Assembly (NCBI GenBank): GCA_965205425.1
Contig: CBDBGZ010000009.1
Span: 960,001-1,024,000, forward strand
Direction: 5' to 3'
Length of the DNA: 64,000 nt
Origin: Nitrosopumilus sp.
Lineage (GTDB): Archaea; Thermoproteota; Nitrososphaeria; Nitrososphaerales; Nitrosopumilaceae
In this document: piece by piece, positions 35,423 through 49,795 of the stretch
Layout of the letters: each line of letters begins with the position of its first letter
Numbering within the stretch: position 1 is the stretch's first letter
Notes under the pieces: generated by a model
What the model was told of the DNA's origin: nothing
The model's database searches: none
Seen by the model: the letters and a program-made list of their open reading frames with translations, nothing else
Made by a program: the position numbers and the translations under genes

Positions 35423-36451
35423 TCTATTATCCTCAAATTAGTTCACCCCATTATTTCCAGACTAAAGTCAAGATACGTTTGGAAAAGAGGAAAGAATCAC
35501 AAGATTATGCAAAAGTTAGATCCAATCCAGATATCCTGGATAATCAAGTCAAAAGAGGACGGTGCCAAGAACGCAGACGTTGCCTCATCCATGAAGATAT
35601 CTGTTGGGTGGATGCAGAAACTCTACTCACGGTATCGCCGTACTGGTGCAGTTCCAATCCTAGGCAAGTCTGGAAGGCCAAAGGGAATAATCACAGAGCA
35701 GATGGTGCAGACTGTCCAGTCTACATTTGAAAAGTTCAGGTGTTCTGCAGTATTCTTGGAGAAAATAATTGATACTACTGGAACACACATACCTCACAAT
35801 ACCATACACAAAATTATGAGAGATGAAGGGTTGGCAGAAGCTCAGCCAAAGAAGAGGAGAAGACGAAAGTGGGTTCGATATGAAAGGACATATTCAAACT
35901 CCATGTGGCATACTGACTGGAAGAAGCTAGATGATGGCAGATGGTTCTTATGCTACCAGGATGACGCATCAAGGTTTATCGTTTCTCATGGAGTGTTTGC
36001 AGAGGCAACAACAGATAACGCACTTGTAGTATTACATGAGGCAATTGCAAAGCACGGTAGGCCTGCATCAATTCTAACTGATCATGGCTCCCAGTTTTAT
36101 GCAAACCAATCAGAATACAAGAGAAAAGGAGCATCCCAGTTTGAGCAAGAACTGGTAAAATTAGAGATAAAGCATATCATGGCAAGAGTGAACCATCCTC
36201 AAACCAATGGCAAGCTCGAAAGATTTCACGGCGAGATTCAGAGAAAGCAGAAATGGTTTGGCACCATTGATGAGCTGGTCCACTGGTACAATCACATAAA
36301 GCCACACATGTCACTTGACTGGGATAATCTTGAGACCCCTGCAAAGGCATATGCAAGAAAGATGCCAGAGAAAGGAACAAGAGTTATTGATGAGCAGACA
36401 GGAGAAGAATACGATGTCAAATAAGGGACGAACTGATTTTGGGATACAACA
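35423..36451 (+). mobile_element. IS481-family insertion sequence, 1029 bp, with 15-bp flanking direct repeat
   Basis: TAGTGTGCCTGGTGG at 35408-35422 and 36452-36466; imperfect 27-bp TIRs (19/27), right end ...ACAACA; visibly GC-richer than host. Confidence 0.92.
35507..36424 (+). CDS. IS481-family DDE transposase (intact)
   Basis: WHTDWK, DDASR, LTDHGSQF, HPQTNGKLERF, WYNHIKPH. Confidence 0.95.
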   Translation: MQKLDPIQISWIIKSKEDGAKNADVASSMKISVGWMQKLYSRYRRTGAVPILGKSGRPKGIITEQMVQTVQSTFEKFRCSAVFLEKIIDTTGTHIPHNTIHKIMRDEGLAEAQPKKRRRRKWVRYERTYSNSMWHTDWKKLDDGRWFLCYQDDASRFIVSHGVFAEATTDNALVVLHEAIAKHGRPASILTDHGSQFYANQSEYKRKGASQFEQELVKLEIKHIMARVNHPQTNGKLERFHGEIQRKQKWFGTIDELVHWYNHIKPHMSLDWDNLETPAKAYARKMPEKGTRVIDEQTGEEYDVK

Positions 36452-39500: not shown

Positions 39501-40538
39501 TTACATTTTTGGATCAAGGCCTTTTGCTAATCTTAATGCATCAACAAGACCATCTGCATAACCAATACTCAAAATTGCAACTTCATCCTGACCATCTTCA
39601 AGAAATTTCTCTGCATCTTTGACATACAATTCTGCATTTTCTAAAATTCCTTGAAATTCTTTCTGACCTTTGTATAATGGTTCCACCTCTTCTAAAGCCT
39701 CTCTGACCATTGGAACGTATTTCTTCATCATTTGGATGGATATTTTCTTTGTTTTTTCTGTGTTGTCAAATGGTTCATCTACACATTGACCAAATATTTT
39801 CAAAGCATCCGTTTCTGTAAAATGTAATCTTCCTGGAATAATTACAGTGTGAGGTGGTTTACCAAAATCTATTTTCTTCAAACTAGATATTTTTCCTGAA
39901 ATGATACTTTGATCTTTAAACCCTATTCTTGATGCAACTATAACATATGTTGATGAACTAATGACATTTCTAATCTGTCCTTTTTCAGTTTCCAAAAGTC
40001 CACTTAATGCGTCTTTAGGATCTAAGAAAAAATCTTTATCTTGATTATATTCTAAAAGAAGTACTGTGTGATTTCCTTCTATGATATTTTTGTATATTAC
40101 ATAGTATGGTGTTGTTAATGATTTCATTTCACTCATTATTGTTGCAATTCTTCCAACTTTGTAAAAATGCAAACCGCATTCTCCAATCATTGAAGTAAGT
40201 GAAGATGATGCATGAATGGAATAAGTCTTAATTTTTTCTTCTATTGCCCTGGTTCTTAATTCTATATGGGTAGTTGCTATGTATGGATCTCCATATGCTA
40301 ATAATACAACTTTCTTTTTCTTTGCATTTTTTAAAATTTCACTACCGTCTTCCACAAGCCATCTTTTTGCAAGTTTGAATTCCCCTTTTGTAGCATTTTT
40401 AATTTTTGTTAAATCTGATTTTCCAATTGGACTTGTAAATTGTTCCAAATAAACAATATCAGCTTTTGATAAAACATCTAATGCTTCACTAGGAATTGAT
40501 TCGAATCCCGAAATTCCTAAACCTACAAACCAAAGCAT
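39501..40538 (-). CDS. dph5: Diphthine synthase with C-terminal DUF357-like domain
   Basis: VGLG, GDPYIATTH, GLHFYKVG, HTVLLL; YADGLVDAL tail. Confidence 0.93.
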   Translation of the reverse strand: MLWFVGLGISGFESIPSEALDVLSKADIVYLEQFTSPIGKSDLTKIKNATKGEFKLAKRWLVEDGSEILKNAKKKKVVLLAYGDPYIATTHIELRTRAIEEKIKTYSIHASSSLTSMIGECGLHFYKVGRIATIMSEMKSLTTPYYVIYKNIIEGNHTVLLLEYNQDKDFFLDPKDALSGLLETEKGQIRNVISSSTYVIVASRIGFKDQSIISGKISSLKKIDFGKPPHTVIIPGRLHFTETDALKIFGQCVDEPFDNTEKTKKISIQMMKKYVPMVREALEEVEPLYKGQKEFQGILENAELYVKDAEKFLEDGQDEVAILSIGYADGLVDALRLAKGLDPKM

Positions 40539-41665
40539 TACTGCATTTTTCTGTCATGAAGTCTTTTTAAATGCTGTAGTGTTTTCTTGAGAATTTCTAT
40601 ACCTCTAAGATACTCATCAACTGAAACTTTTTCATCAATTGTATGTGCTTCATGTGGATCTCCTGGTCCATATGTCACAACTGGAATCCCCCACTGATTC
40701 CCAAGAACATTCATGTCTCCTGTACCTGTTTTTCTGATCAACGTTGGTCTGGAATGCTCAGTTTCCATAATTCCTAGTGTAAATGCTCTAACTAATGGTG
40801 AGTTGTGAGGAGCCTCAAATGGTTCAGTTTCATCAAGAATTGAATAAAATGCTTCTACTTCCCTTTCTTGAGAAATCTCTTTGACTAGTGTTGCAATCTT
40901 TTGTTCAATTGTTTTACAATTCATATCTACAGGAATTCGGATATCAAAAGTTGTTTCACAATCTTTAGGTGTAACATTATGACTAGTTCCACCTTTAACT
41001 TCTGTCATGGTGGCAGTCAATAACATTCCTTTAGTTTTTCCATCTTGGTTTGCTTCTAATTTTCCTTTTAATTCTCTTGCAAAAATCATTGATTCTAAAA
41101 TTGCATTTTTTGATAACCATGGAGCACTTGCATGAGAACTATCTGGTACACTAATTTTGAGATTAATTGCTAATCTTCCTTTGTATGCAATTGTAACTTT
41201 TTTTATTCCACTTGGTTCCCCAAATACTGCGTAATCTATGTCCATTTTCTTTTTGACTAAATTTTTAATTCCTGTTGCATTTCCTTCTTCATCAACTGCT
41301 CCGACAAAAATTATTGTTCCATTATTGTTTTGGATTGATGCTGCAGCAAATAACATTGCCATTAATGGCGCTTTTGCATCTGATGCACCTCTACCATAAA
41401 GTGCATCTCCTTCTTTTCTAACTTTGACTTTACCTGGAACTACATCCATATGTCCACATAACATGATTTTTGGAGATCCTGAACCTTTCTTTGCTATTAC
41501 ATTTCCAACTTCATCAATCTGAATATCTTCAAATCCTAAATCATCACATTTGTCAGCTAAAAATTCTGCCATTGGTTTTTCACTAAGCGATGGTGTATAG
41601 AGTCTGAGTGCTTTCTCTAACATCTTTACTGCAAACCTTGGTGTAACTGTAAAATGAGTGTCCAA
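40538..41665 (-). CDS. lysK: [LysW]-lysine/ornithine hydrolase (M20)
   Basis: GHMDVV, GRGASDAK, DEE, GTGDMN, YGPGD..AHT.DE; cluster context. Confidence 0.92.
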   Translation of the reverse strand: MDTHFTVTPRFAVKMLEKALRLYTPSLSEKPMAEFLADKCDDLGFEDIQIDEVGNVIAKKGSGSPKIMLCGHMDVVPGKVKVRKEGDALYGRGASDAKAPLMAMLFAAASIQNNNGTIIFVGAVDEEGNATGIKNLVKKKMDIDYAVFGEPSGIKKVTIAYKGRLAINLKISVPDSSHASAPWLSKNAILESMIFARELKGKLEANQDGKTKGMLLTATMTEVKGGTSHNVTPKDCETTFDIRIPVDMNCKTIEQKIATLVKEISQEREVEAFYSILDETEPFEAPHNSPLVRAFTLGIMETEHSRPTLIRKTGTGDMNVLGNQWGIPVVTYGPGDPHEAHTIDEKVSVDEYLRGIEILKKTLQHLKRLHDRKMQ

Positions 41666-41668
41666 TTC

Positions 41669-42511
41669 TTACTTTTCTACCTTCAATGCATATTCTAGCA
41701 TTAAGGAAGGAATGTCAACTTCACAAACTCTAACTGTATTTTTGTATTCAGTTGTGTTGTTTACTTCATGTACAACTAGTCCTTTCTCATCACTTTCCAT
41801 CAAATCTACACCTACGATATCTCCCTCAATTGCATGTTTTGCCTTAATACACATTTCTTCCATTTCTTGAGTTACTTTACATGGTTCTGCTGTTCCTCCA
41901 AGAGCCATGTTTGTTTTCCAATGTTTAGAAGAACGATAAATCGCTGCAACAATTTTGTCACCTACCATGATTGCTCTAATATCTCTTGGTGGCCTTTTTA
42001 CAAATTCTTCTAAATAATGAACTTGGTAAATTGGATACATATTTTCCCTACTTTCAATTATTCCTTCAGCTGCATTTCTATCATTTAATTTTGAAATTAA
42101 TCTTCCCCAACTACCTACTGTTGGTTTGATCACTCTTGGGTATCCTTGTGAATCTAATGCTTCTAAAGCTGCTTCTTTTGAAAATGCTACAGTTGCATCT
42201 GGTGTTGGAACTCCAAATTTTTTTAGTAACATATGTGTAAATAATTTATTTCCTGCAAAAACTCCTGTGTTGAGACAATTGATTACTTTGACACCAATTC
42301 CTTCTAATGCTGCCGTAGAATGGAGATTTCTATAGTAACTTACACATCTCTGAATAACTACGCCATAATCTTCTGGTTTTTTTTCTAAATCTATTGCTAA
42401 TTTTTTACAATCGACCATCTTGATGTTGATGTTCTTTTTTTTACCGGCTTCTAGTAGAGCTTTTTCTTCCCAACGGATGGTATCGTAAAGAATGGTAACG
42501 TCAGGATTCAC
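41669..42511 (-). CDS. lysX: Alpha-aminoadipate--LysW ligase (ATP-grasp)
   Basis: KP.VGSWGR, RDIR, WKTN.ALGG, EVNNTTEYKNT; GTG start overlaps the lysW stop. Confidence 0.9.
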   Translation of the reverse strand: MNPDVTILYDTIRWEEKALLEAGKKKNINIKMVDCKKLAIDLEKKPEDYGVVIQRCVSYYRNLHSTAALEGIGVKVINCLNTGVFAGNKLFTHMLLKKFGVPTPDATVAFSKEAALEALDSQGYPRVIKPTVGSWGRLISKLNDRNAAEGIIESRENMYPIYQVHYLEEFVKRPPRDIRAIMVGDKIVAAIYRSSKHWKTNMALGGTAEPCKVTQEMEEMCIKAKHAIEGDIVGVDLMESDEKGLVVHEVNNTTEYKNTVRVCEVDIPSLMLEYALKVEK

Positions 42512-42675
42512 TGTCCCCAATCCTCGCCAACCGTTTGGGCAGGCTTTAGATCGAAACCGTTTGAACCTTTAGCTAATTCAAAACTTGCGCCACATTCCGG
42601 ACATGTTACGATTTCTCCTTCAAGTGCATCACTTGGTATGGAAATATCTGCATCACATTCTTCACATTTTGACAT
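42508..42675 (-). CDS. lysW: LysW-type carrier protein ending EDWGQ (not in ORF track)
   Basis: MSKCEECDAD...GEIVTCPECGASFEL...VGEDWGQ*, 55 aa. Confidence 0.93.
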   Translation of the reverse strand: MSKCEECDADISIPSDALEGEIVTCPECGASFELAKGSNGFDLKPAQTVGEDWGQ

Positions 42676-42697
42676 ATTTTCTCTTCATTACTCCTCT

Positions 42698-43864
42698 TTA
42701 TTTATCATTAATTATCTTTTTTTCAAGTCTGTCTTCTAGTGGGATCTCAATTAGATCACCCATTCTAAGACCTTTCAATCCTGCAGCAACAGCTTTTGCA
42801 CCTTCATCATCTTTCTCTAATCCTAATAATGACATCAAATATGCTGCACCTGTTTTTCCTGCAAGTTCTCCAAATACTATCCTTCTTCTATTGCCAACTG
42901 CTCTTGGTGGAATTGGTTCATAGGCTGCAGGATTTTTGAGAATTGCTGCAAGGTGTGTACCTGCTTTGTGTTTGTATGCTGCTGTACCTACTATTGGTTT
43001 TGAATCATATGGCTTGATTGTTGTATAATCTTCAATTAGTCTGGATAAATCAAGTAACATATCCAATCTGAAATCATTTGGCGATTTGTATAGATATGTT
43101 AATGCTACTGCAACTTCTGCAAGTGGAGGTATTCCTGTTCTTTCTCCAATACCATCAATAGTAGTATGAATTTGATCAACTCCTGCATCACATGCTGAAA
43201 ATGCATTTGCAACTGCCAAACCAATATCATTGTGAACGTGTGCATCTAATGGAACATCTACAACTTCTCTTACCTTTTTAACAAAATTATACATTCCAAT
43301 TGGACGTAAAATTCCAACTGTATCTGGAAGACTAATTCTGTCTACTCCTGCTTCTTCAATAGATTTACACACTTTTAGTAAGAATTCTGGTTCTGCTCTA
43401 CTTCCATCTTCAACTGTAAATCTAATTTTTAGTCCATGAGATTTTGCATACTCTACTGTTTCTACTGCTCTTTCAAGTGCTTCTTCTCTTGAAATTCGTA
43501 ATTTATCTTTAAGATGAATGTCTGAAATTCCTAAATACACTGCACACCATTTTGCATCACAATCTAATGAAATGTCTATGTCTTGTTTGAGTGCACGTCC
43601 ATGCGATACAATGTCTGCCTTTAGTCCTTGTTTGATAATTGTTTTAGTTGCTTCTTTGTGATCATTTGAAACCACTGGTGAAATTTCAATTTGATCAACT
43701 CCAAAATAATCTAACATCCATGCAATTTGGATTCTTTGTTTATTTGTAAATGAAACACCTGGGTGTTGTTCTCCTTCTCTAAGTGTACTATCTAACACTC
43801 TAATTTTTTTTTGGTTTTTGTCATATGCATTGTATAGATTTGCATAGTGATTCGGATCTTTCAT
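42698..43864 (-). CDS. Homocitrate synthase (LeuA family)
   Basis: DSTLREGEQ, HVHND.G, GIGERTG; lacks LeuA regulatory domain; located in lys cluster. Confidence 0.85.
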   Translation of the reverse strand: MKDPNHYANLYNAYDKNQKKIRVLDSTLREGEQHPGVSFTNKQRIQIAWMLDYFGVDQIEISPVVSNDHKEATKTIIKQGLKADIVSHGRALKQDIDISLDCDAKWCAVYLGISDIHLKDKLRISREEALERAVETVEYAKSHGLKIRFTVEDGSRAEPEFLLKVCKSIEEAGVDRISLPDTVGILRPIGMYNFVKKVREVVDVPLDAHVHNDIGLAVANAFSACDAGVDQIHTTIDGIGERTGIPPLAEVAVALTYLYKSPNDFRLDMLLDLSRLIEDYTTIKPYDSKPIVGTAAYKHKAGTHLAAILKNPAAYEPIPPRAVGNRRRIVFGELAGKTGAAYLMSLLGLEKDDEGAKAVAAGLKGLRMGDLIEIPLEDRLEKKIINDK

Positions 43865-43981: not shown

Positions 43982-44401
43982 TTAGATAATTTTTCTTAAA
44001 ATTATGACTGTGTTGGTGTCTACTACCCCTGTAATTTTTCTTAATGCATCAATACTACTATTTATTTCAGCAATACTTGTAGCACTCATAATTGTTGTAA
44101 TGTCATATTGACCTGTGATTTCATAAACTGTTTTCACTCCTTCCAATTTTGCTAGTTTTAGTGATACTTTGGATGTATCTGTTGCAGAGTCTACTGAAAC
44201 TAGAACAATTGCACTAGTTGTATTCTCTTCACCTAATTCTAAAGTAAATTTTTTGATAGTTCCACTATCCACTAAATTTTTTACACGTCTTCTAACTGCT
44301 GATTCTGATAATTTCAGTTTTTTACCAATGTCTACAAACGATTCTCTAGAATCTTCTTTTAGGTAACCAATAATTTTTTCGTCTACTTTATCCTTGTACA
44401 T
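43982..44401 (-). CDS. lysM: Lrp/AsnC regulator LysM
   Basis: LSESAVRRRV HTH, YEITGQYDI; cluster context. Confidence 0.88.
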   Translation of the reverse strand: MYKDKVDEKIIGYLKEDSRESFVDIGKKLKLSESAVRRRVKNLVDSGTIKKFTLELGEENTTSAIVLVSVDSATDTSKVSLKLAKLEGVKTVYEITGQYDITTIMSATSIAEINSSIDALRKITGVVDTNTVIILRKII

Positions 44402-45569
44402 TTCTTTTTTCTTCCTCTTCAGTTAGTACTAAATCAAGAGCATGTAAAACTTTTGTTACGTCATCTTCAGATATTACTAGTGGAGGAAGAATTCTGAGAA
44501 TATTTCTTCCAGAATAAAGCATAAGAACTCCTTTTTTGATTAATCCAAATAGAATATCTTTAACTTCAAATTTCATCTCTATTCCTATCATGAGACCTTT
44601 TCCTCTAATTTCTCTAATCATTTGATGTTTTTCTTTTAATTTTTCTAATCCGTCTCTGAATAATCTCCCCATCTTCTCAGAATTTTCAATTAGACCATCT
44701 TCTGTGATTGCTTTAAGAGCTGCTGTTCCTGCTGCACATGATATTGGATTTCCTCCAAATGTTGATGAATGTTCGCCCTTAGTTATTGAAGCTAGAATAT
44801 CTGGTTTTACAAGAGTTGCACCCATTGGAACTCCACCTGCAATTCCTTTTGCTAAACATAGGATGTCTGGAGCAGTATTCCAATGATCACAAGCCCATAA
44901 TCGTCCGGTTCTACCTAAACCAGCTTGTATTTCGTCAAAAATTAGCACAATTCCTTTTTCATCACACATTTTTCTTACCTCTTGCAAAAATCCTTCTGGC
45001 GCAACAATGATTCCACTTTCTCCTTGAATTGGTTCTAAGATCACAAATGCCGTATCATCGTCTACAACTGAACGTAATGATTCAATGTCTCCATAAGATG
45101 CAAATGAAACTTTCTCAACTAATGGAGCAAACGCTTTTCTATATTTTGGATTAAATGTTAATGATAATGCTCCAAATGATTTTCCATGATAAGATCCTTT
45201 CATTGCAACCATTCCTTTTTTCCCAGTAAACTTTCTTGCAAATTTCATGGCAGCTTCAATTGCTTCAGCTCCACTGTTGTTTAGGTGGACTTGTGTCAAA
45301 CCTTCTGGTGCTAATCCAATCAGTGTTGTCAAAAATTCTTCTCTTGTTTTATTGTATAATGAACTATGAACTGTAATGATCTTATCAATTTGTTCTTTGA
45401 TTCCATTGTTTACTCTTTGATTTTTATGACCAACTAAAGCTACTCCGTATCCTCCCATGCAATCGATGTATTCTTTTCCATCTACATCCCATACATGTGA
45501 TCCTACACCTTTTTCAATTGTAACTGGAAATCTCTGATAGAGATTTCCCATAAATTGGTCTTCACTCAT
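44388..45569 (-). CDS. lysJ: [LysW]-semialdehyde aminotransferase (class III)
   Basis: NSGAEA, EPIQGE, DEIQAG.GRTG, LAK, STFGGNP. Confidence 0.93.
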   Translation of the reverse strand: MSEDQFMGNLYQRFPVTIEKGVGSHVWDVDGKEYIDCMGGYGVALVGHKNQRVNNGIKEQIDKIITVHSSLYNKTREEFLTTLIGLAPEGLTQVHLNNSGAEAIEAAMKFARKFTGKKGMVAMKGSYHGKSFGALSLTFNPKYRKAFAPLVEKVSFASYGDIESLRSVVDDDTAFVILEPIQGESGIIVAPEGFLQEVRKMCDEKGIVLIFDEIQAGLGRTGRLWACDHWNTAPDILCLAKGIAGGVPMGATLVKPDILASITKGEHSSTFGGNPISCAAGTAALKAITEDGLIENSEKMGRLFRDGLEKLKEKHQMIREIRGKGLMIGIEMKFEVKDILFGLIKKGVLMLYSGRNILRILPPLVISEDDVTKVLHALDLVLTEEEEKRNVQG

Positions 45570-46365
45570 GTTTAATCACCGTACAATTATCATGTGCAAT
45601 AGCTGATGAAATTGGATTTTCTCTCTGACCATTTCCAATTAATGCTACTTTGACTCCCATATCTAATGCTTCAGTAGATGCCAAAATTTTCTTTTCCATT
45701 CCAGGTCCTATTTTAGGTCTAATTTCTTTTGCTTCTGCTAATGTTAATTTTGGAACAAGTTTGTCATCCATTAATAATCCATCAACATTTGTGATGAATA
45801 ATACCTTATCACATCCAACTTTGCCTGCAACATACGCTGCTGCTCTGTCTCCATCAATGTTGAGAAATTCTGATTCTTCACTCATTGCTATGGGTGAAAT
45901 TACAGGTGTTAGACCTTGATCTAAGAGTGATTTGATGAATTTTGAATTTACTTCTCTAATTTTTCCTGTATAACCGCCATCAATTGCTTGTTTTCGTCCT
46001 TTTTCATTTACTATTAGTAATTTCTTTTTTCTATCAGCTTCTATGACTTTTGCATCTACTCCTGAAAGACCTATTGCATTAATGCCATTTTTTTGTAACA
46101 TTTGAACAATGGTTTTGTTAATTCTACCTGACATTACCATGGTAAAAATTTCTGCAGTTTCTTTGTCTGTGTATCTACTTTTGATACCACTTGGAGATGT
46201 GACAAATTTTGGTTCTTTTCCAAGTTGTTTACATACTTTGGTAACTTCTTTTCCTCCCCCATGAACAATTATGATACCTTCAGTTTCTGCTGCTTTTTTA
46301 ATATCTAAAATTGTTGATGGATGTAAATCATCTACTACACTTCCGCCAATTTTGATTGTGATCAT
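45562..46365 (-). CDS. lysZ: [LysW]-aminoadipate/glutamate kinase
   Basis: KIGGS, VHGGG, SRYTD, LNIDGD. Confidence 0.93.
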   Translation of the reverse strand: MITIKIGGSVVDDLHPSTILDIKKAAETEGIIIVHGGGKEVTKVCKQLGKEPKFVTSPSGIKSRYTDKETAEIFTMVMSGRINKTIVQMLQKNGINAIGLSGVDAKVIEADRKKKLLIVNEKGRKQAIDGGYTGKIREVNSKFIKSLLDQGLTPVISPIAMSEESEFLNIDGDRAAAYVAGKVGCDKVLFITNVDGLLMDDKLVPKLTLAEAKEIRPKIGPGMEKKILASTEALDMGVKVALIGNGQRENPISSAIAHDNCTVIKHE

Positions 46366-46367
46366 TT

Positions 46368-47414
46368 CTAAACAGGAGTTAATGGAGTGTATCTTAATCC
46401 GTCCATTTCATCAAAACCACACATTACATTCATGTTTTGAATAGCAGAACCGGCTGCACCTTTCATCAAGTTATCTGATGCTGATAATGCAATTAATCTA
46501 TTGTTATCTTCATCTAAATCAAATCCAATATCACAAAAGTTTGAACCTACTAGGAATTTTGGATCTGGGAATTTATACAATCCTTTTTTATCTCTGATTA
46601 ATCTAACAAATTTTTCTTCACCATATGCCTGACGATAAATTTTCCATAATTCTTTTTCTTCAATATCTTTTTTCAAGAATGTATGATTTGTACACAAAAT
46701 ACCTCTAACTACATCTACTGCATGTGGACTCATTGATACACGGATTTTACTTCCTGCAATTTCACTTAACTCTTGTTCGATTTCACCAGTGTGTCTGTGT
46801 TTTGCTGGTTTGTATGGTCTGATTACACCAGCTCTCATTGCATGAGCAGTTCCTGAACCTGAACCTGCTCCTGATGAACCAATTTTTGAATCAACAATAA
46901 TGTGATCAGTATCGATAAGATCATTTTTGATTAATGGTGCAAGTGCAAGCGTTGATGTAACTGCCATACATCCTGGGCAAGAAACTAGTTGTGCTTTTTT
47001 AATTTCTTCTCTATGTAATTCTGGAACGCCAAAAACTGATTTTTCTAAATAATCTGGATGCGGATGTTCCCAACCATACCATTTGTCATAAGCATCTTGA
47101 TTGTGTAATCTATAATCTGCACTCAAATCAATTACTTTGATTCCTCTATCATAGAGTGCTTTTACAATTTCAGTAGCTGTTCCATGTGGTACTGCAGTGA
47201 AAACTACATCACACTTGTCTGTTAATTTGTCATAATCTAATTCTGAGAAAGTAAGATCGGTAAATCCCTTCAAACTTGGTTGAACTCTATGAAGATATTC
47301 TCCTACGTGTTGTCTTGATGTGACCATTGAGATCTCTACATCTGGATGGTTTACCAGAAGACGAAGTGTTTCTCCACCTACATATCCTGATGCTCCTACA
47401 ACTCCTACTTTCAT
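46368..47414 (-). CDS. lysY: [LysW]-aminoacyl-phosphate reductase (ArgC/LysY)
   Basis: GASGYVG, DLSADYRL, PGC, DNLMKGAAG. Confidence 0.94.
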   Translation of the reverse strand: MKVGVVGASGYVGGETLRLLVNHPDVEISMVTSRQHVGEYLHRVQPSLKGFTDLTFSELDYDKLTDKCDVVFTAVPHGTATEIVKALYDRGIKVIDLSADYRLHNQDAYDKWYGWEHPHPDYLEKSVFGVPELHREEIKKAQLVSCPGCMAVTSTLALAPLIKNDLIDTDHIIVDSKIGSSGAGSGSGTAHAMRAGVIRPYKPAKHRHTGEIEQELSEIAGSKIRVSMSPHAVDVVRGILCTNHTFLKKDIEEKELWKIYRQAYGEEKFVRLIRDKKGLYKFPDPKFLVGSNFCDIGFDLDEDNNRLIALSASDNLMKGAAGSAIQNMNVMCGFDEMDGLRYTPLTPV

Positions 47415-47442: not shown

Positions 47443-48300
47443 TTATTTTCTTACGTAGTTTAGCGCAAATTCTACCATTTCTTTTGGTATATTTCGTTGT
47501 GCAACTCTTGCCAACCCTTTGAATTCTACTGTATTATTGACTTCATGTACAACTAGTCCTTTCTCATCGTCTTCCATCATGTCGATTCCTAAGATTCCGC
47601 CACCCATGGCTTTTGCTGCTTTTGCTGCCATATCTTCCATCTCTTTTGTGATCTCACAAAGCTCTGGATCTGCCCCTAGTGCGATATTTGTTTTAAATCC
47701 ACCTGAAGATTTTCTATACATGGCTGCAATAGGCTCATCACCAACAGTGATTACCCTGATGTCTCTTGGTGGTCTTTGAACTAATTCTTGCAAATAGTAA
47801 ATTCTATCGTGAGGACTATCTGTGATATCTCTAATTTCAAAAACTGCTTCCATGGTATCTTTATCTTTGAGTGGCATGACTCCTCTTCCCCAACTTCCAA
47901 TAACTGGCTTAATGACTAGTGGGAATCCAACTTTCTCTAAATTCTCTGCTGCACTATCACTTGAAAATGAAAAATATGTTTTAGGTGTTGGAATGTTATT
48001 TTTTTTCAAAAGTAATGTCATGAACATTTTATTTCCACAAATATTTGCAACTTCAAATTTGTTTAATACTGGAATGTCCATGAATTCTAAACTGGAAGTA
48101 AAATGCAATCCTCTAAAATAACTAACACATCTTTCTAAAACAACATCCCCTAAATCAAAATCTTCTTTTTTACTATCTGTATTGATTTGAGTAATTTTAG
48201 CATCTAACATCAATGCATCGTGTCCTAATTCTGATGCTTCCTTTTGAAGCATTTTTTCTTCCGCTCTTAAGCGGTCAAACACAATACAGATTTTTGACAT
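47443..48300 (-). CDS. argX: Glutamate--LysW ligase (second ATP-grasp paralog)
   Basis: KPVIGSWGR, EVNNTVEFKGL (ArgX-like ending); follows argG-lysW. Confidence 0.8.
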   Translation of the reverse strand: MSKICIVFDRLRAEEKMLQKEASELGHDALMLDAKITQINTDSKKEDFDLGDVVLERCVSYFRGLHFTSSLEFMDIPVLNKFEVANICGNKMFMTLLLKKNNIPTPKTYFSFSSDSAAENLEKVGFPLVIKPVIGSWGRGVMPLKDKDTMEAVFEIRDITDSPHDRIYYLQELVQRPPRDIRVITVGDEPIAAMYRKSSGGFKTNIALGADPELCEITKEMEDMAAKAAKAMGGGILGIDMMEDDEKGLVVHEVNNTVEFKGLARVAQRNIPKEMVEFALNYVRK

Positions 48301-48467
48301 TACTCTCCCCAGTCTTCGCCTACGGTTTCTGCTTGTTTAAGCTCAACATTTGATCCGTCTTTTTTAGCGATTTCAAAGTCAGCGCCACAATCAGGGCAGG
48401 AAATAATTTCTCCTACTGAGGCATCGTCTGGGATGTTTAGTGTTGCATCACATTCTGGGCAGTTCAT
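48300..48467 (-). CDS. lysW: LysW carrier protein with canonical EDWGE end (not in ORF track)
   Basis: MNCPECDA...SCPDCG...VGEDWGE*, 55 aa. Confidence 0.95.
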   Translation of the reverse strand: MNCPECDATLNIPDDASVGEIISCPDCGADFEIAKKDGSNVELKQAETVGEDWGE

Positions 48468-49663
48468 GTTTTTGTTGACCTTTTCTTTTGTAATTTATTA
48501 GCTTCTGTTGACTGCATTCCCCATAATTCTACAAATCCTTTGGCTAATCTTTGATCAAATGTTGATTCTACTCCATAAGTTGCAATATTGTGACTGTACA
48601 ATGAGTTATTTGACTTTCTTCCGACTACTCTGAGACTTCCTTTGTACAACTTTAGTTTCACAGTGCCTGAAACTGGTTTTTGTGCTGCTTCAATAAATCC
48701 ATCTAGATCTGTTTTTAGAGGATCTTGCCAAAGACCTGAATATACCAAATATGCCCATTCATCATCAATCATTGATTTGAACTTGTTTTCATGTTTGGTA
48801 TGAACCATCTTTTCTAAATCGGTATGAGCTTCAATTAGACAGGTTGCTGCTGGAGTTTCGTATACCTCTCGAGATTTAATTCCTACAACCCTGTCTTCAA
48901 TATGATCAACTATGCCAACACCTGCATTTCCTGCTTTCTTGTTGATATATTCAATTAGTTTTAGTGGCTCCATTGATTTACCATCTACTCCAACTGGAAT
49001 TCCTTTGTTGAATTTGATTTCCAAGTATGTTGGTTTGTCTGGCAAGTTTTTTGTTTTAACCCAAATGAATGCATCATCTGGTGGTTCATTATATGGATCT
49101 TCTAACACGCCACCTTCAATTGCACGTCCCCAAAGATTTTGATCAATACTGAATTTTTTTGCTACAGTATCAATTTCAATCCCATGTTTTTTTGCAAACT
49201 TTAGTTCTGTATCTCTATCTAAATTCTTGTCTCGTATAGGAGCTATAATTGGAAGATCAGAACCTGAACGTAATGTAATATCGAATCGTACTTGATCATT
49301 TCCCTTTCCAGAACAACCATGTGCAAGAGAAGTTACTTTTTCTTTTTTTGCAATCTCTAATACTTTTTCTGCAATTAGTGGTCTTGCAAGAGCTGTTGCT
49401 AGACAATATTTTTTCTGATATAGTGCATTTGCTTTAATTGAAGGAAAAATGTAATCTTTGACAAATTCTTTTCTTGCATCAATGTTATAGTGTTTTTTTA
49501 CACCGAGCTTTTTTGCTTTTGCTGCAATTTTTTTCCAATTGTCACCTTGACCTACATCTACAGTAACTGTAATGACATCCATGTCATGCTCATCTTGTAG
49601 ATACTTTACAACAACTGATGTATCTAGTCCACCTGAAAATGCAAGAATTCCTTTTTGAGTCAT
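48464..49663 (-). CDS. argG: Argininosuccinate synthase
   Basis: LAFSGGLDTS, HGCSGKGNDQVRF, KSREVYE. Confidence 0.97.
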   Translation of the reverse strand: MTQKGILAFSGGLDTSVVVKYLQDEHDMDVITVTVDVGQGDNWKKIAAKAKKLGVKKHYNIDARKEFVKDYIFPSIKANALYQKKYCLATALARPLIAEKVLEIAKKEKVTSLAHGCSGKGNDQVRFDITLRSGSDLPIIAPIRDKNLDRDTELKFAKKHGIEIDTVAKKFSIDQNLWGRAIEGGVLEDPYNEPPDDAFIWVKTKNLPDKPTYLEIKFNKGIPVGVDGKSMEPLKLIEYINKKAGNAGVGIVDHIEDRVVGIKSREVYETPAATCLIEAHTDLEKMVHTKHENKFKSMIDDEWAYLVYSGLWQDPLKTDLDGFIEAAQKPVSGTVKLKLYKGSLRVVGRKSNNSLYSHNIATYGVESTFDQRLAKGFVELWGMQSTEANKLQKKRSTKT

Positions 49664-49795
49664 AAAACATCTTTTTCGTCGTATTTTGGAATTTATCTTT
49701 TGTGATAGGCTCAAATCAAATTATTATCAAAAAATTTCTGACTAGCTTGAGCTAAAATTCGATGATTATTTAACCGCCAAATATAACGCTGTTTT

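Follow-up and report, generated by a model that had tools for sequence, protein, structure and literature searches.

The amino-group carrier proteins LysW and ArgW of Thermus, Sulfolobus, Thermococcus and Natrinema (3WWL, 3VPB and 5K2M) belong to a Zn-ribbon family, have an acidic body and an EDWG tail, and are encoded in operons with lysX/argX, lysY, lysZ, lysJ and lysK. The three solved carriers end in Glu (seen directly in 3VPB and 3WWL; for all three according to the consulted part of PMC10433800). EDWGE is treated as the carrier motif in the literature, it is recognised by the GSWGR motif of the ligase, and an E54A mutant of the Natrinema carrier is auxotrophic (same part of PMC10433800). 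For Nitrosopumilus maritimus, a lysW is named beside argX and a second carrier goes unmentioned in the consulted part of PMC6038301.

Pup, like LysW a small protein, is joined via the gamma-carboxyl of its terminal Glu and is encoded with Q or E depending on the species, sometimes with both in one genome, as we find for LysW; the conjugate-cleaving enzyme Dop also deamidates its Q form (PMC3511204). The two systems are analogous only and show no homology: Pup ligases are absent from the genomes searched (see below), the LysW ligase is an ATP-grasp enzyme and the hydrolase an M20 or Ntn enzyme, and the cargo is a small metabolite, that of Pup being a protein lysine.

Here we analysed 64,000 nucleotides of a Nitrosopumilus sp. 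contig (the window), in which one of two LysW copies ends in Gln. By sequence comparison, Q-ended LysW is a real and widespread new variant of a known system that would involve one additional maturation step.

Two carriers in one lysine and arginine gene cluster

The genes are arranged in the order argG, lysW(E), argX, lysY, lysZ, lysJ, lysM, homocitrate synthase, lysW(Q), lysX, lysK and dph5 (Table 1). The sequence-only reading had described a LysW copy ending EDWGQ, with its stop overlapping the GTG start of lysX, and a paralog ending EDWGE, and both are present on the minus strand. The 3' end of lysW(Q) reads GAG GAT TGG GGA CAG TGA, the lysX start (42511-42509) consisting of the last G of CAG and the TG of the stop, and the paralog at 48300-48467 ends GGA GAG TAA. 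Both pass the NCBIfam LysW/ArgW model NF041070 with 88.9 (Q) and 92.9 (E) bits at a cut-off of 75. The Q copy adjoins lysX, and lysYZJK are also in the genome, but it lacks the encoded C-terminal Glu of LysW/ArgW and is hence a variant rather than a plain member; unlike in EDWGE carriers, the gamma-carboxyl is not encoded. The whole genome holds two carriers (the only EDWG-x termini), two ligases and one LysK-like gene.

Table 1. Genes and sequence elements of the carrier cluster, in window coordinates
Feature	Position	Strand	Evidence and remarks
lysW(Q) carrier, EDWGQ end, 55 aa, two CxxC motifs	42508..42675	(-)	upstream of lysX; NF041070 88.9 bits, PF21344
CAG (Gln55) codon	42511..42513	(-)	its G opens the GTG start codon of lysX
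TGA stop of lysW(Q)	42510-42508	(-)	
lysX, alpha-aminoadipate ATP-grasp ligase, 280 aa	41669..42511	(-)	TIGR02144 329 bits; GSWGR intact; signature I-I-M-NT
lysK, M20 [LysW]-lysine/ornithine hydrolase	40538..41665	(-)	TIGR01902 280 bits
homocitrate synthase	42698..43864	(-)	family and context; TIGR02146 383 bits, below cut-off 413
lysM, Lrp-type regulator	43982..44401	(-)	NF040947 above cut-off
lysJ/argD aminotransferase, common to both branches	44388..45569	(-)	profile match
lysZ/argB kinase, common to both branches	45562..46365	(-)	NF010662
lysY/argC reductase, common to both branches	46368..47414	(-)	TIGR01850
argX, glutamate ATP-grasp ligase	47443..48300	(-)	profile match; signature I-M-I-GL (scheme: PMC12998189)
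second lysW (argW), EDWGE end	48300..48467	(-)	62% identity to Q copy
argG, argininosuccinate synthase	48464..49714	(-)	profile match; start codon uncertain

By the residue scheme in the consulted part of PMC12998189, the ligase after the Q copy is lysine-type (I at 192, N at 258) and that after the E copy arginine-type (G at 258), in agreement with the gene context. The lysK product exceeds the TIGR01902 cut-off of 163 bits and aligns with 5XOY and has the metal-binding and catalytic motifs GHMD, RGAxDAK, EE, GEP and H, which are invariant in all 29 LysK sequences compared. RNA run X2, kept as contigs only, matched 0.06 of the words of the stretch. The diphthine synthase gene (39501-40538, minus strand), which comes after lysK in most relatives fetched, encodes 345 aa, about 90 residues beyond the length of the TIGR00522 model. 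A 305-aa ORF on the plus strand (35507-36424), between enoyl-CoA hydratase-like and Fe-S assembly-like genes, presumably belongs to an insertion-sequence transposase, which it resembles by eye.

Authenticity and spread of the Gln terminus

All 25 same-genus loci end in Q, as do three of the five best loci from other families. Within the order, 186 of 301 genomes contain EDWGQ followed by a stop, and a contig of run X3, which is possibly the source sample and hence not independent support, spans 42363-43196 at a depth of 220 with no differing letter. A sequencing error or one-off mutation is thereby ruled out. The suggestion of the sequence-only reading that Glu in close orthologs would speak against the variant stands in so far as Glu does occur, in one same-genus genome (G267) and in two genera of family f15, but this points to interchangeability and not to error.

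The overlap of stop and start does not cause the Gln: Glu carriers have the same GTG overlap (GAG TGA in G267 and several f4 loci), and Q is encoded by CAA or CAG with all three stops. Among the LysW matches listed, we counted CAG TGA (n = 34), CAA TAA (n = 28), CAG TAG (n = 17), CAG TAA (n = 16), CAA TGA (n = 5) and CAA TAG (n = 5). The overlap may have a mild effect on translational coupling.

By family, EDWGQ-stop is found in 88 of 89 genomes of f1, 89/89 of f15, 6/10 of f9, 2/8 of f4 and none of the 104 genomes of 13 other families; the unpublished genomes G269 and G263 are one unit each in the 301-genome tallies. Because the pattern also allows TGG, one match (in G038) was false, and the reversed pattern, used as a control, had no match in all 301 genomes. 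EDWGE-stop is present in 87/89 genomes of f1 but in only 29/89 of f15 (60/89 without). A phylum-wide sample showed Q in 10 of 92 among the matches listed outside f1, eight of them in one family (hand count), and a GTDB scan avoiding the Gly-EDWGQ form yielded at least 115 loci, at least 105 of which are LysW by their Cys pattern. The matches listed include Gammaproteobacteria, Ignavibacteria (including the isolate Stygiobacter electus), Calditrichia, Acidobacteriota, Gemmatimonadota, Phycisphaerae and Patescibacteria-type genomes and, among other archaea, Methanosarcinales, Caldarchaeum and Terraquivivens. A class-wide search around G319 found a carrier in only 11 of 151 genomes (3 Q, 8 E). 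The Gln terminus is therefore no peculiarity of the window copy or of the lysine branch, but a widespread second form of LysW.

Residues other than Glu and Gln were not seen at the terminus. Of 150 representatives at 50% identity, 112 retain the terminal motif, with E in 91 and Q in 21, the remaining 38 being fragments, variants or unrelated. Gly-EDWG followed by a codon whose second base is not A, a search that leaves out Lys, His, Asn, Asp and Tyr, matched in two of 301 genomes, both times an ammonium transporter and not LysW. The transporter in G297 (L343:277-1518, plus strand; PF00909) ends GEDWGV, a LysW-tail-like end that may be due to chance, and a second copy with this end is present in the unpublished G263.

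Several further genes were observed around these loci. LysW/lysX-type genes occur in Methanosarcinales and in the Patescibacteria-type groups Wirthbacteria, Microgenomates, Parcubacteria and Roizmanbacteria (L097, L119, L159, L115, L174, L192), two lysX-like genes standing in tandem in L119 and L159; to our knowledge, these groups are not known for the LysW pathway. In Caldarchaeum (L113:6040-7266, minus strand; also L103, L110, L111), a P-loop gene of at least about 410 aa with a weak cobW match sits between lysJ and lysK on the opposite strand. A conserved 218-aa protein with no Pfam match is encoded beside the lysW operon in L100 (3103-3756, minus strand) and 14 further loci; it is divergent from the operon in L100 and possibly a regulator.

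Q-ended LysW as the only carrier

Five combinations of carriers were seen: Lys-Q/Arg-E as in the window, Lys-E/Arg-Q, Q/Q, E/E and single Q. G126 and G242 are the reverse of the window, with Q before argX and E before lysX, and the complete genomes G173 and G112 have two Q-ended carriers each. G038, G090 and G106 (one contig, 99% complete) encode a single, Q-ended LysW together with lysX and argX (profile search), and their argG directly adjoins argX, at the former place of the second carrier. Single Q-ended carriers are also found in G319, G320, G321 and G323, and one Q carrier each in G129, G202, G225 and G297, whose assemblies are in many contigs. In G248, the argX-linked lysW is decayed (L350:1492-1743, minus strand; Cys and EDWG tail lost) beside intact argG, argX and lysY, the Q copy being intact, so that carrier loss is caught in progress. 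Two f1 genomes without an E carrier (G306, G152) have a second, solitary Q-ended lysW, with no argX or argG in the fetched flanks (L043, 14 kb, and L067, 2 kb, respectively), and in G312 an E-ended orphan (L064) is present as a third copy.

One option in the sequence-only reading was that the Q copy is a decoy or regulator; the E copy would then serve both branches. The window genome does have an E copy, and a single LysW serves both branches in Sulfolobus (consulted part of PMC12998189), but in relatives it is the E copy that was lost (G038, G090, G106) or is decaying (G248), with Q left alone, and G319, G320, G321 and G323 have Q carriers only. A Q-ended LysW as sole carrier in complete genomes keeping both ligases contradicts this option and is also a strong argument against a pathway tag; we regard the decoy reading as largely refuted and its probability as very small. 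The organisms appear to need the pathway, judging from the intact operon, the kept LysX, ArgX and LysK genes and their autotrophy, and the Q-ended carrier would thus have to work.

It could work if Glu were placed at CAG in some molecules by Glu-tRNA(Gln) of indirect charging. The window genome is without a GlnRS above cut-off, as is expected of archaea, but GlnRS is present in three of the single-Q bacteria (G319, G320, G323), which excludes misreading of the tRNA as a general cause and makes such a leak scarcely probable for the Q carriers at large.

Exchange of Glu and Gln without change in the enzymes

A tree of LysX sequences from the order (38 rows after removal of one ArgX row and of 19 near-identical ones from the same genus; E rows are over-represented) requires at least eight changes of the E/Q label, six of them forced by well-supported branches. 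A quick tree of 103 other ligases, sampled by Q or by the Ntn gene described below, needs at least ten, three of them forced. Across 179 ligases (60 E-linked, 119 Q-linked), neither GSWGR nor the conserved charged residues differ between the groups, the largest overall frequency gap being 0.42. The Glu carrier of G267, a revertant, precedes a LysX 93% identical to that of the window, and this LysX has no substituted residue that its Q relatives lack. No column of LysK separates 9 E-only from 20 Q genomes, the best being a conservative I/L difference, and none of LysZ, LysY or LysJ separates 10 E-only from 23 Q genomes. Five columns of ArgX fully separate 7 Q-linked from 19 E-linked sequences, but four of the five (11, 14, 140 and 211) recur in E-linked ArgX within the same family (L322, L325) and are thus marks of lineage, not Q-specific residues.

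Among the 25 same-genus genomes, both residues are present in 11 of 83 E/Q-majority columns and both C and G at 103 of 211 four-fold sites, a comparison that gives no support for selection for Q over E. The selected feature is the gamma-carbonyl side chain, and the pattern, as far as sequences tell, fits slow and nearly neutral toggling between E and Q.

This bears on the proposal, also made in the sequence-only reading, that the alpha-carboxyl is used. LysX belongs to the RimK family (profile search), and RimK extends C-termini (consulted part of PMC10375531); a RimK-like ligase might activate the terminal alpha-carboxyl, in which case Gln would be permanent and Q and E carriers chemically distinct. 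Such a linkage would explain why the lysine carrier of f1 keeps Q (88/89) alongside an E carrier (87/89). Other terminal residues would then be expected, and none was seen among the representatives or in the codon search described above (the latter without Lys, His, Asn, Asp and Tyr); moreover, E and Q carriers are served by the same unchanged ligases, G126 and G242 have the opposite arrangement, an EgtC-fold release enzyme (see below) would be expected to cut gamma-amides, and the Natrinema E54A mutant is auxotrophic (consulted part of PMC10433800). Alpha-linkage is thus disfavoured, and we consider it quite improbable.

An EgtC-like hydrolase in bacterial lysW operons

Of 80 flanked Q loci, 38 carry a gene for a 212-aa Ntn hydrolase inside the operon, usually between lysY and lysZ (e.g., L091:7367-8008 and L106:5960-6595, both plus strand, and about 120 further loci in L084-L163 and L213-L292). 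As a dedicated Q-specific deamidase it failed the control, since a carrier is visible in 42 of 80 metagenome loci, with E in 36 and Q in 6. None of 126 loci with the Ntn gene has a same-strand lysK (46 extend 1500 bases or more past lysJ, and four loci are repeats), and the six loci with lysK have no Ntn gene. All four genomes with the Ntn gene are without a LysK above cut-off, and Caldarchaeum G321 has LysK and no Ntn gene. The gene is thus a probable non-orthologous [LysW]-lysine hydrolase replacing LysK.

The model of the Ntn protein (pLDDT 89.6) matches 4ZFL, 4ZFJ and 4ZFK (Foldseek E 4e-13, TM about 0.8). It shares with EgtC and the class II glutamine amidotransferases the fold, an N-terminal Cys2 (invariant in 18/18) and the HxR and NG motifs, but its location in lysW operons sets it apart and the first member scores 51.5 bits, far under the TIGR03442 equivalog cut-off of 218.65. 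Known members of the EgtC fold hydrolyse glutamine or gamma-glutamyl amides. Distant homologs have xDSE where 111 of 114 sequences have xIGAE, a replacement that, given the role of the Asp in xDSE, fits an N-acylated glutamyl substrate. EgtC itself removes a gamma-glutamyl group (consulted part of PMC6374457).

The predicted complex of the Ntn hydrolase with its own Q-ended LysW scored 0.78, compared with 0.02 for the best of three controls; of 157 solved pairs, 116 attain the mark for this score, as do 2 of 215 mismatched ones. At least 98% of contacts are common to the runs, the partner pLDDT is at least 87, and the modelled LysW tail (48-55) lies on the active-site face (residues 1-2, 75-78 and about 100-120). 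The enzyme is therefore predicted to bind the LysW tail and, having a glutaminase fold, would be predicted to deamidate a Q carrier readily. It was found neither in the genome of the window nor in any of 28 family members searched, and so supports deamidation there by analogy only.

A putative maturation step for Q-ended carriers

The terminal Gln can be regarded as the gamma-glutamyl amide of ammonia. A single loss of NH3 would give an ordinary EDWGE carrier, which LysX or ArgX could then load at the gamma-carboxyl, and LysZ, LysY, LysJ and LysK would run the normal cycle afterwards; priming would be needed once per molecule because each release leaves Glu. An ATP-grasp ligase requires a carboxylate. 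The restriction to E and Q, the unchanged enzymes and the auxotrophy of Natrinema E54A (consulted part of PMC10433800) make conversion of the Gln the simplest reading. Deamidation, one of the options in the sequence-only reading, was judged needed or likely: removal of the terminal Gln amide is highly probable, and the Q-encoded carrier of many ammonia-oxidising archaea and some bacteria probably must be activated by an undescribed deamidation step. For the fuller reading, that LysW-EDWGQ is synthesised as the pro-form of a functional carrier, primed once and then used in the normal gamma-glutamyl cycle, we see the chances as evenly balanced.

The likeliest priming enzyme would be the release hydrolase, that is LysK in the window and the EgtC-like Ntn hydrolase in many bacteria. 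LysK is the first candidate because it cleaves an amide at the same gamma-carbonyl and is the sole amide hydrolase identified in the operon. An M20 hydrolase usually holds on to the alpha-carboxylate of the departing amino acid as well; ammonia has none, so LysK may be a poor deamidase, and the missing Q-linked adaptation in LysK also speaks against it. Overall, we rate its part in the removal of Gln at about one in two. It counts against the pro-carrier reading that two unrelated hydrolases would need the same side activity, whereas a ligase route needs one, and that the persistence of Q in f1 (88/89) is left unaccounted for.

The main rival is a one-off transamidation by LysX or ArgX, in which the ligase itself primes the carrier and gives the normal gamma-linked product. 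It would run the reverse reaction on the Gln amide (ADP and Pi giving gamma-glutamyl phosphate and NH3) and then the forward reaction with aminoadipate or glutamate. Glutamine synthetase has a comparable transferase reaction. LysX-family ligases are present in all Q operons, LysK-type and Ntn-type alike, so that one enzyme would cover all, and with the same end product the E/Q-only toggling and the unchanged enzymes fit as well. Set against this, no ligase residue tracks Q, and we know of no such reverse or transamidation activity in any ATP-grasp ligase. The Pup ligase, too, needs prior deamidation by Dop (PMC3511204). On balance, transamidation seems unlikely, if the strongest of the alternatives to a hydrolase.

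An amidase could also come from outside the operon. The Glu form would then be produced by a housekeeping amidase or glutaminase or by slow spontaneous loss of the amide. The Q terminus arose in distantly related phyla and is tracked by no gene of the operon, as expected of a general activity, and the genome has two GATase-II-domain proteins of the size of GlmS and PurF. The obvious protein deamidases are missing in the genomes searched, Dop/PafA (PF03136, Pup_ligase) from all five, with a match in the Corynebacterium control, and CheD, whose occurrence is patchy, from G000, G038 and G321, and spontaneous deamidation of Gln is very slow at sea temperature. We find this source somewhat less credible than transamidation.

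With a low probability, the Gln end is a selected latch and not the product of drift, every new carrier being born blocked and switched on only by its own pathway. The switch could then be the release hydrolase, with lysine-bound LysK throttling fresh carrier, or a first-of-its-kind ATP-grasp transamidation, and two unrelated hydrolases, the M20 LysK and the undescribed Ntn enzyme that stands in for it in many bacterial phyla, would have converged on a Dop-like double role.

Implications for lysine and arginine biosynthesis

That the variant had not been characterised, as the sequence-only reading supposed, agrees with our literature search, in which none of the papers covered, largely non-subscription ones, contained EDWGQ. 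Nothing on a Gln-ended carrier or on Ntn replacement of LysK was found in the literature searched, and no papers were found there for LysW with Nitrosopumilus and lysine biosynthesis, or for LysK with LysW and glutamine amidotransferase. The papers on Thermus, Sulfolobus and Thermococcus or their supplements may contain an E-to-Q mutant or a mention of the variant.

EDWGE has been regarded as the invariant functional terminus of amino-group carriers, and about one fifth of the LysW clusters (21/112) end in Gln. Nearly every genome in the two largest families examined (f1 and f15) has a Q-ended LysW; judging from named loci, we take these families to be ammonia-oxidising archaea. Several Q genomes are without any Glu-ended carrier, so that current models of the lysine and arginine pathways miss one step; both pathways were gap-filled with the canonical route in the consulted part of PMC6038301. 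If the proposed maturation is true, it would add a second and independent example of Q-to-E maturation of the Pup kind, and the probable non-orthologous replacement of LysK would close a gap in this pathway for many bacterial genomes.
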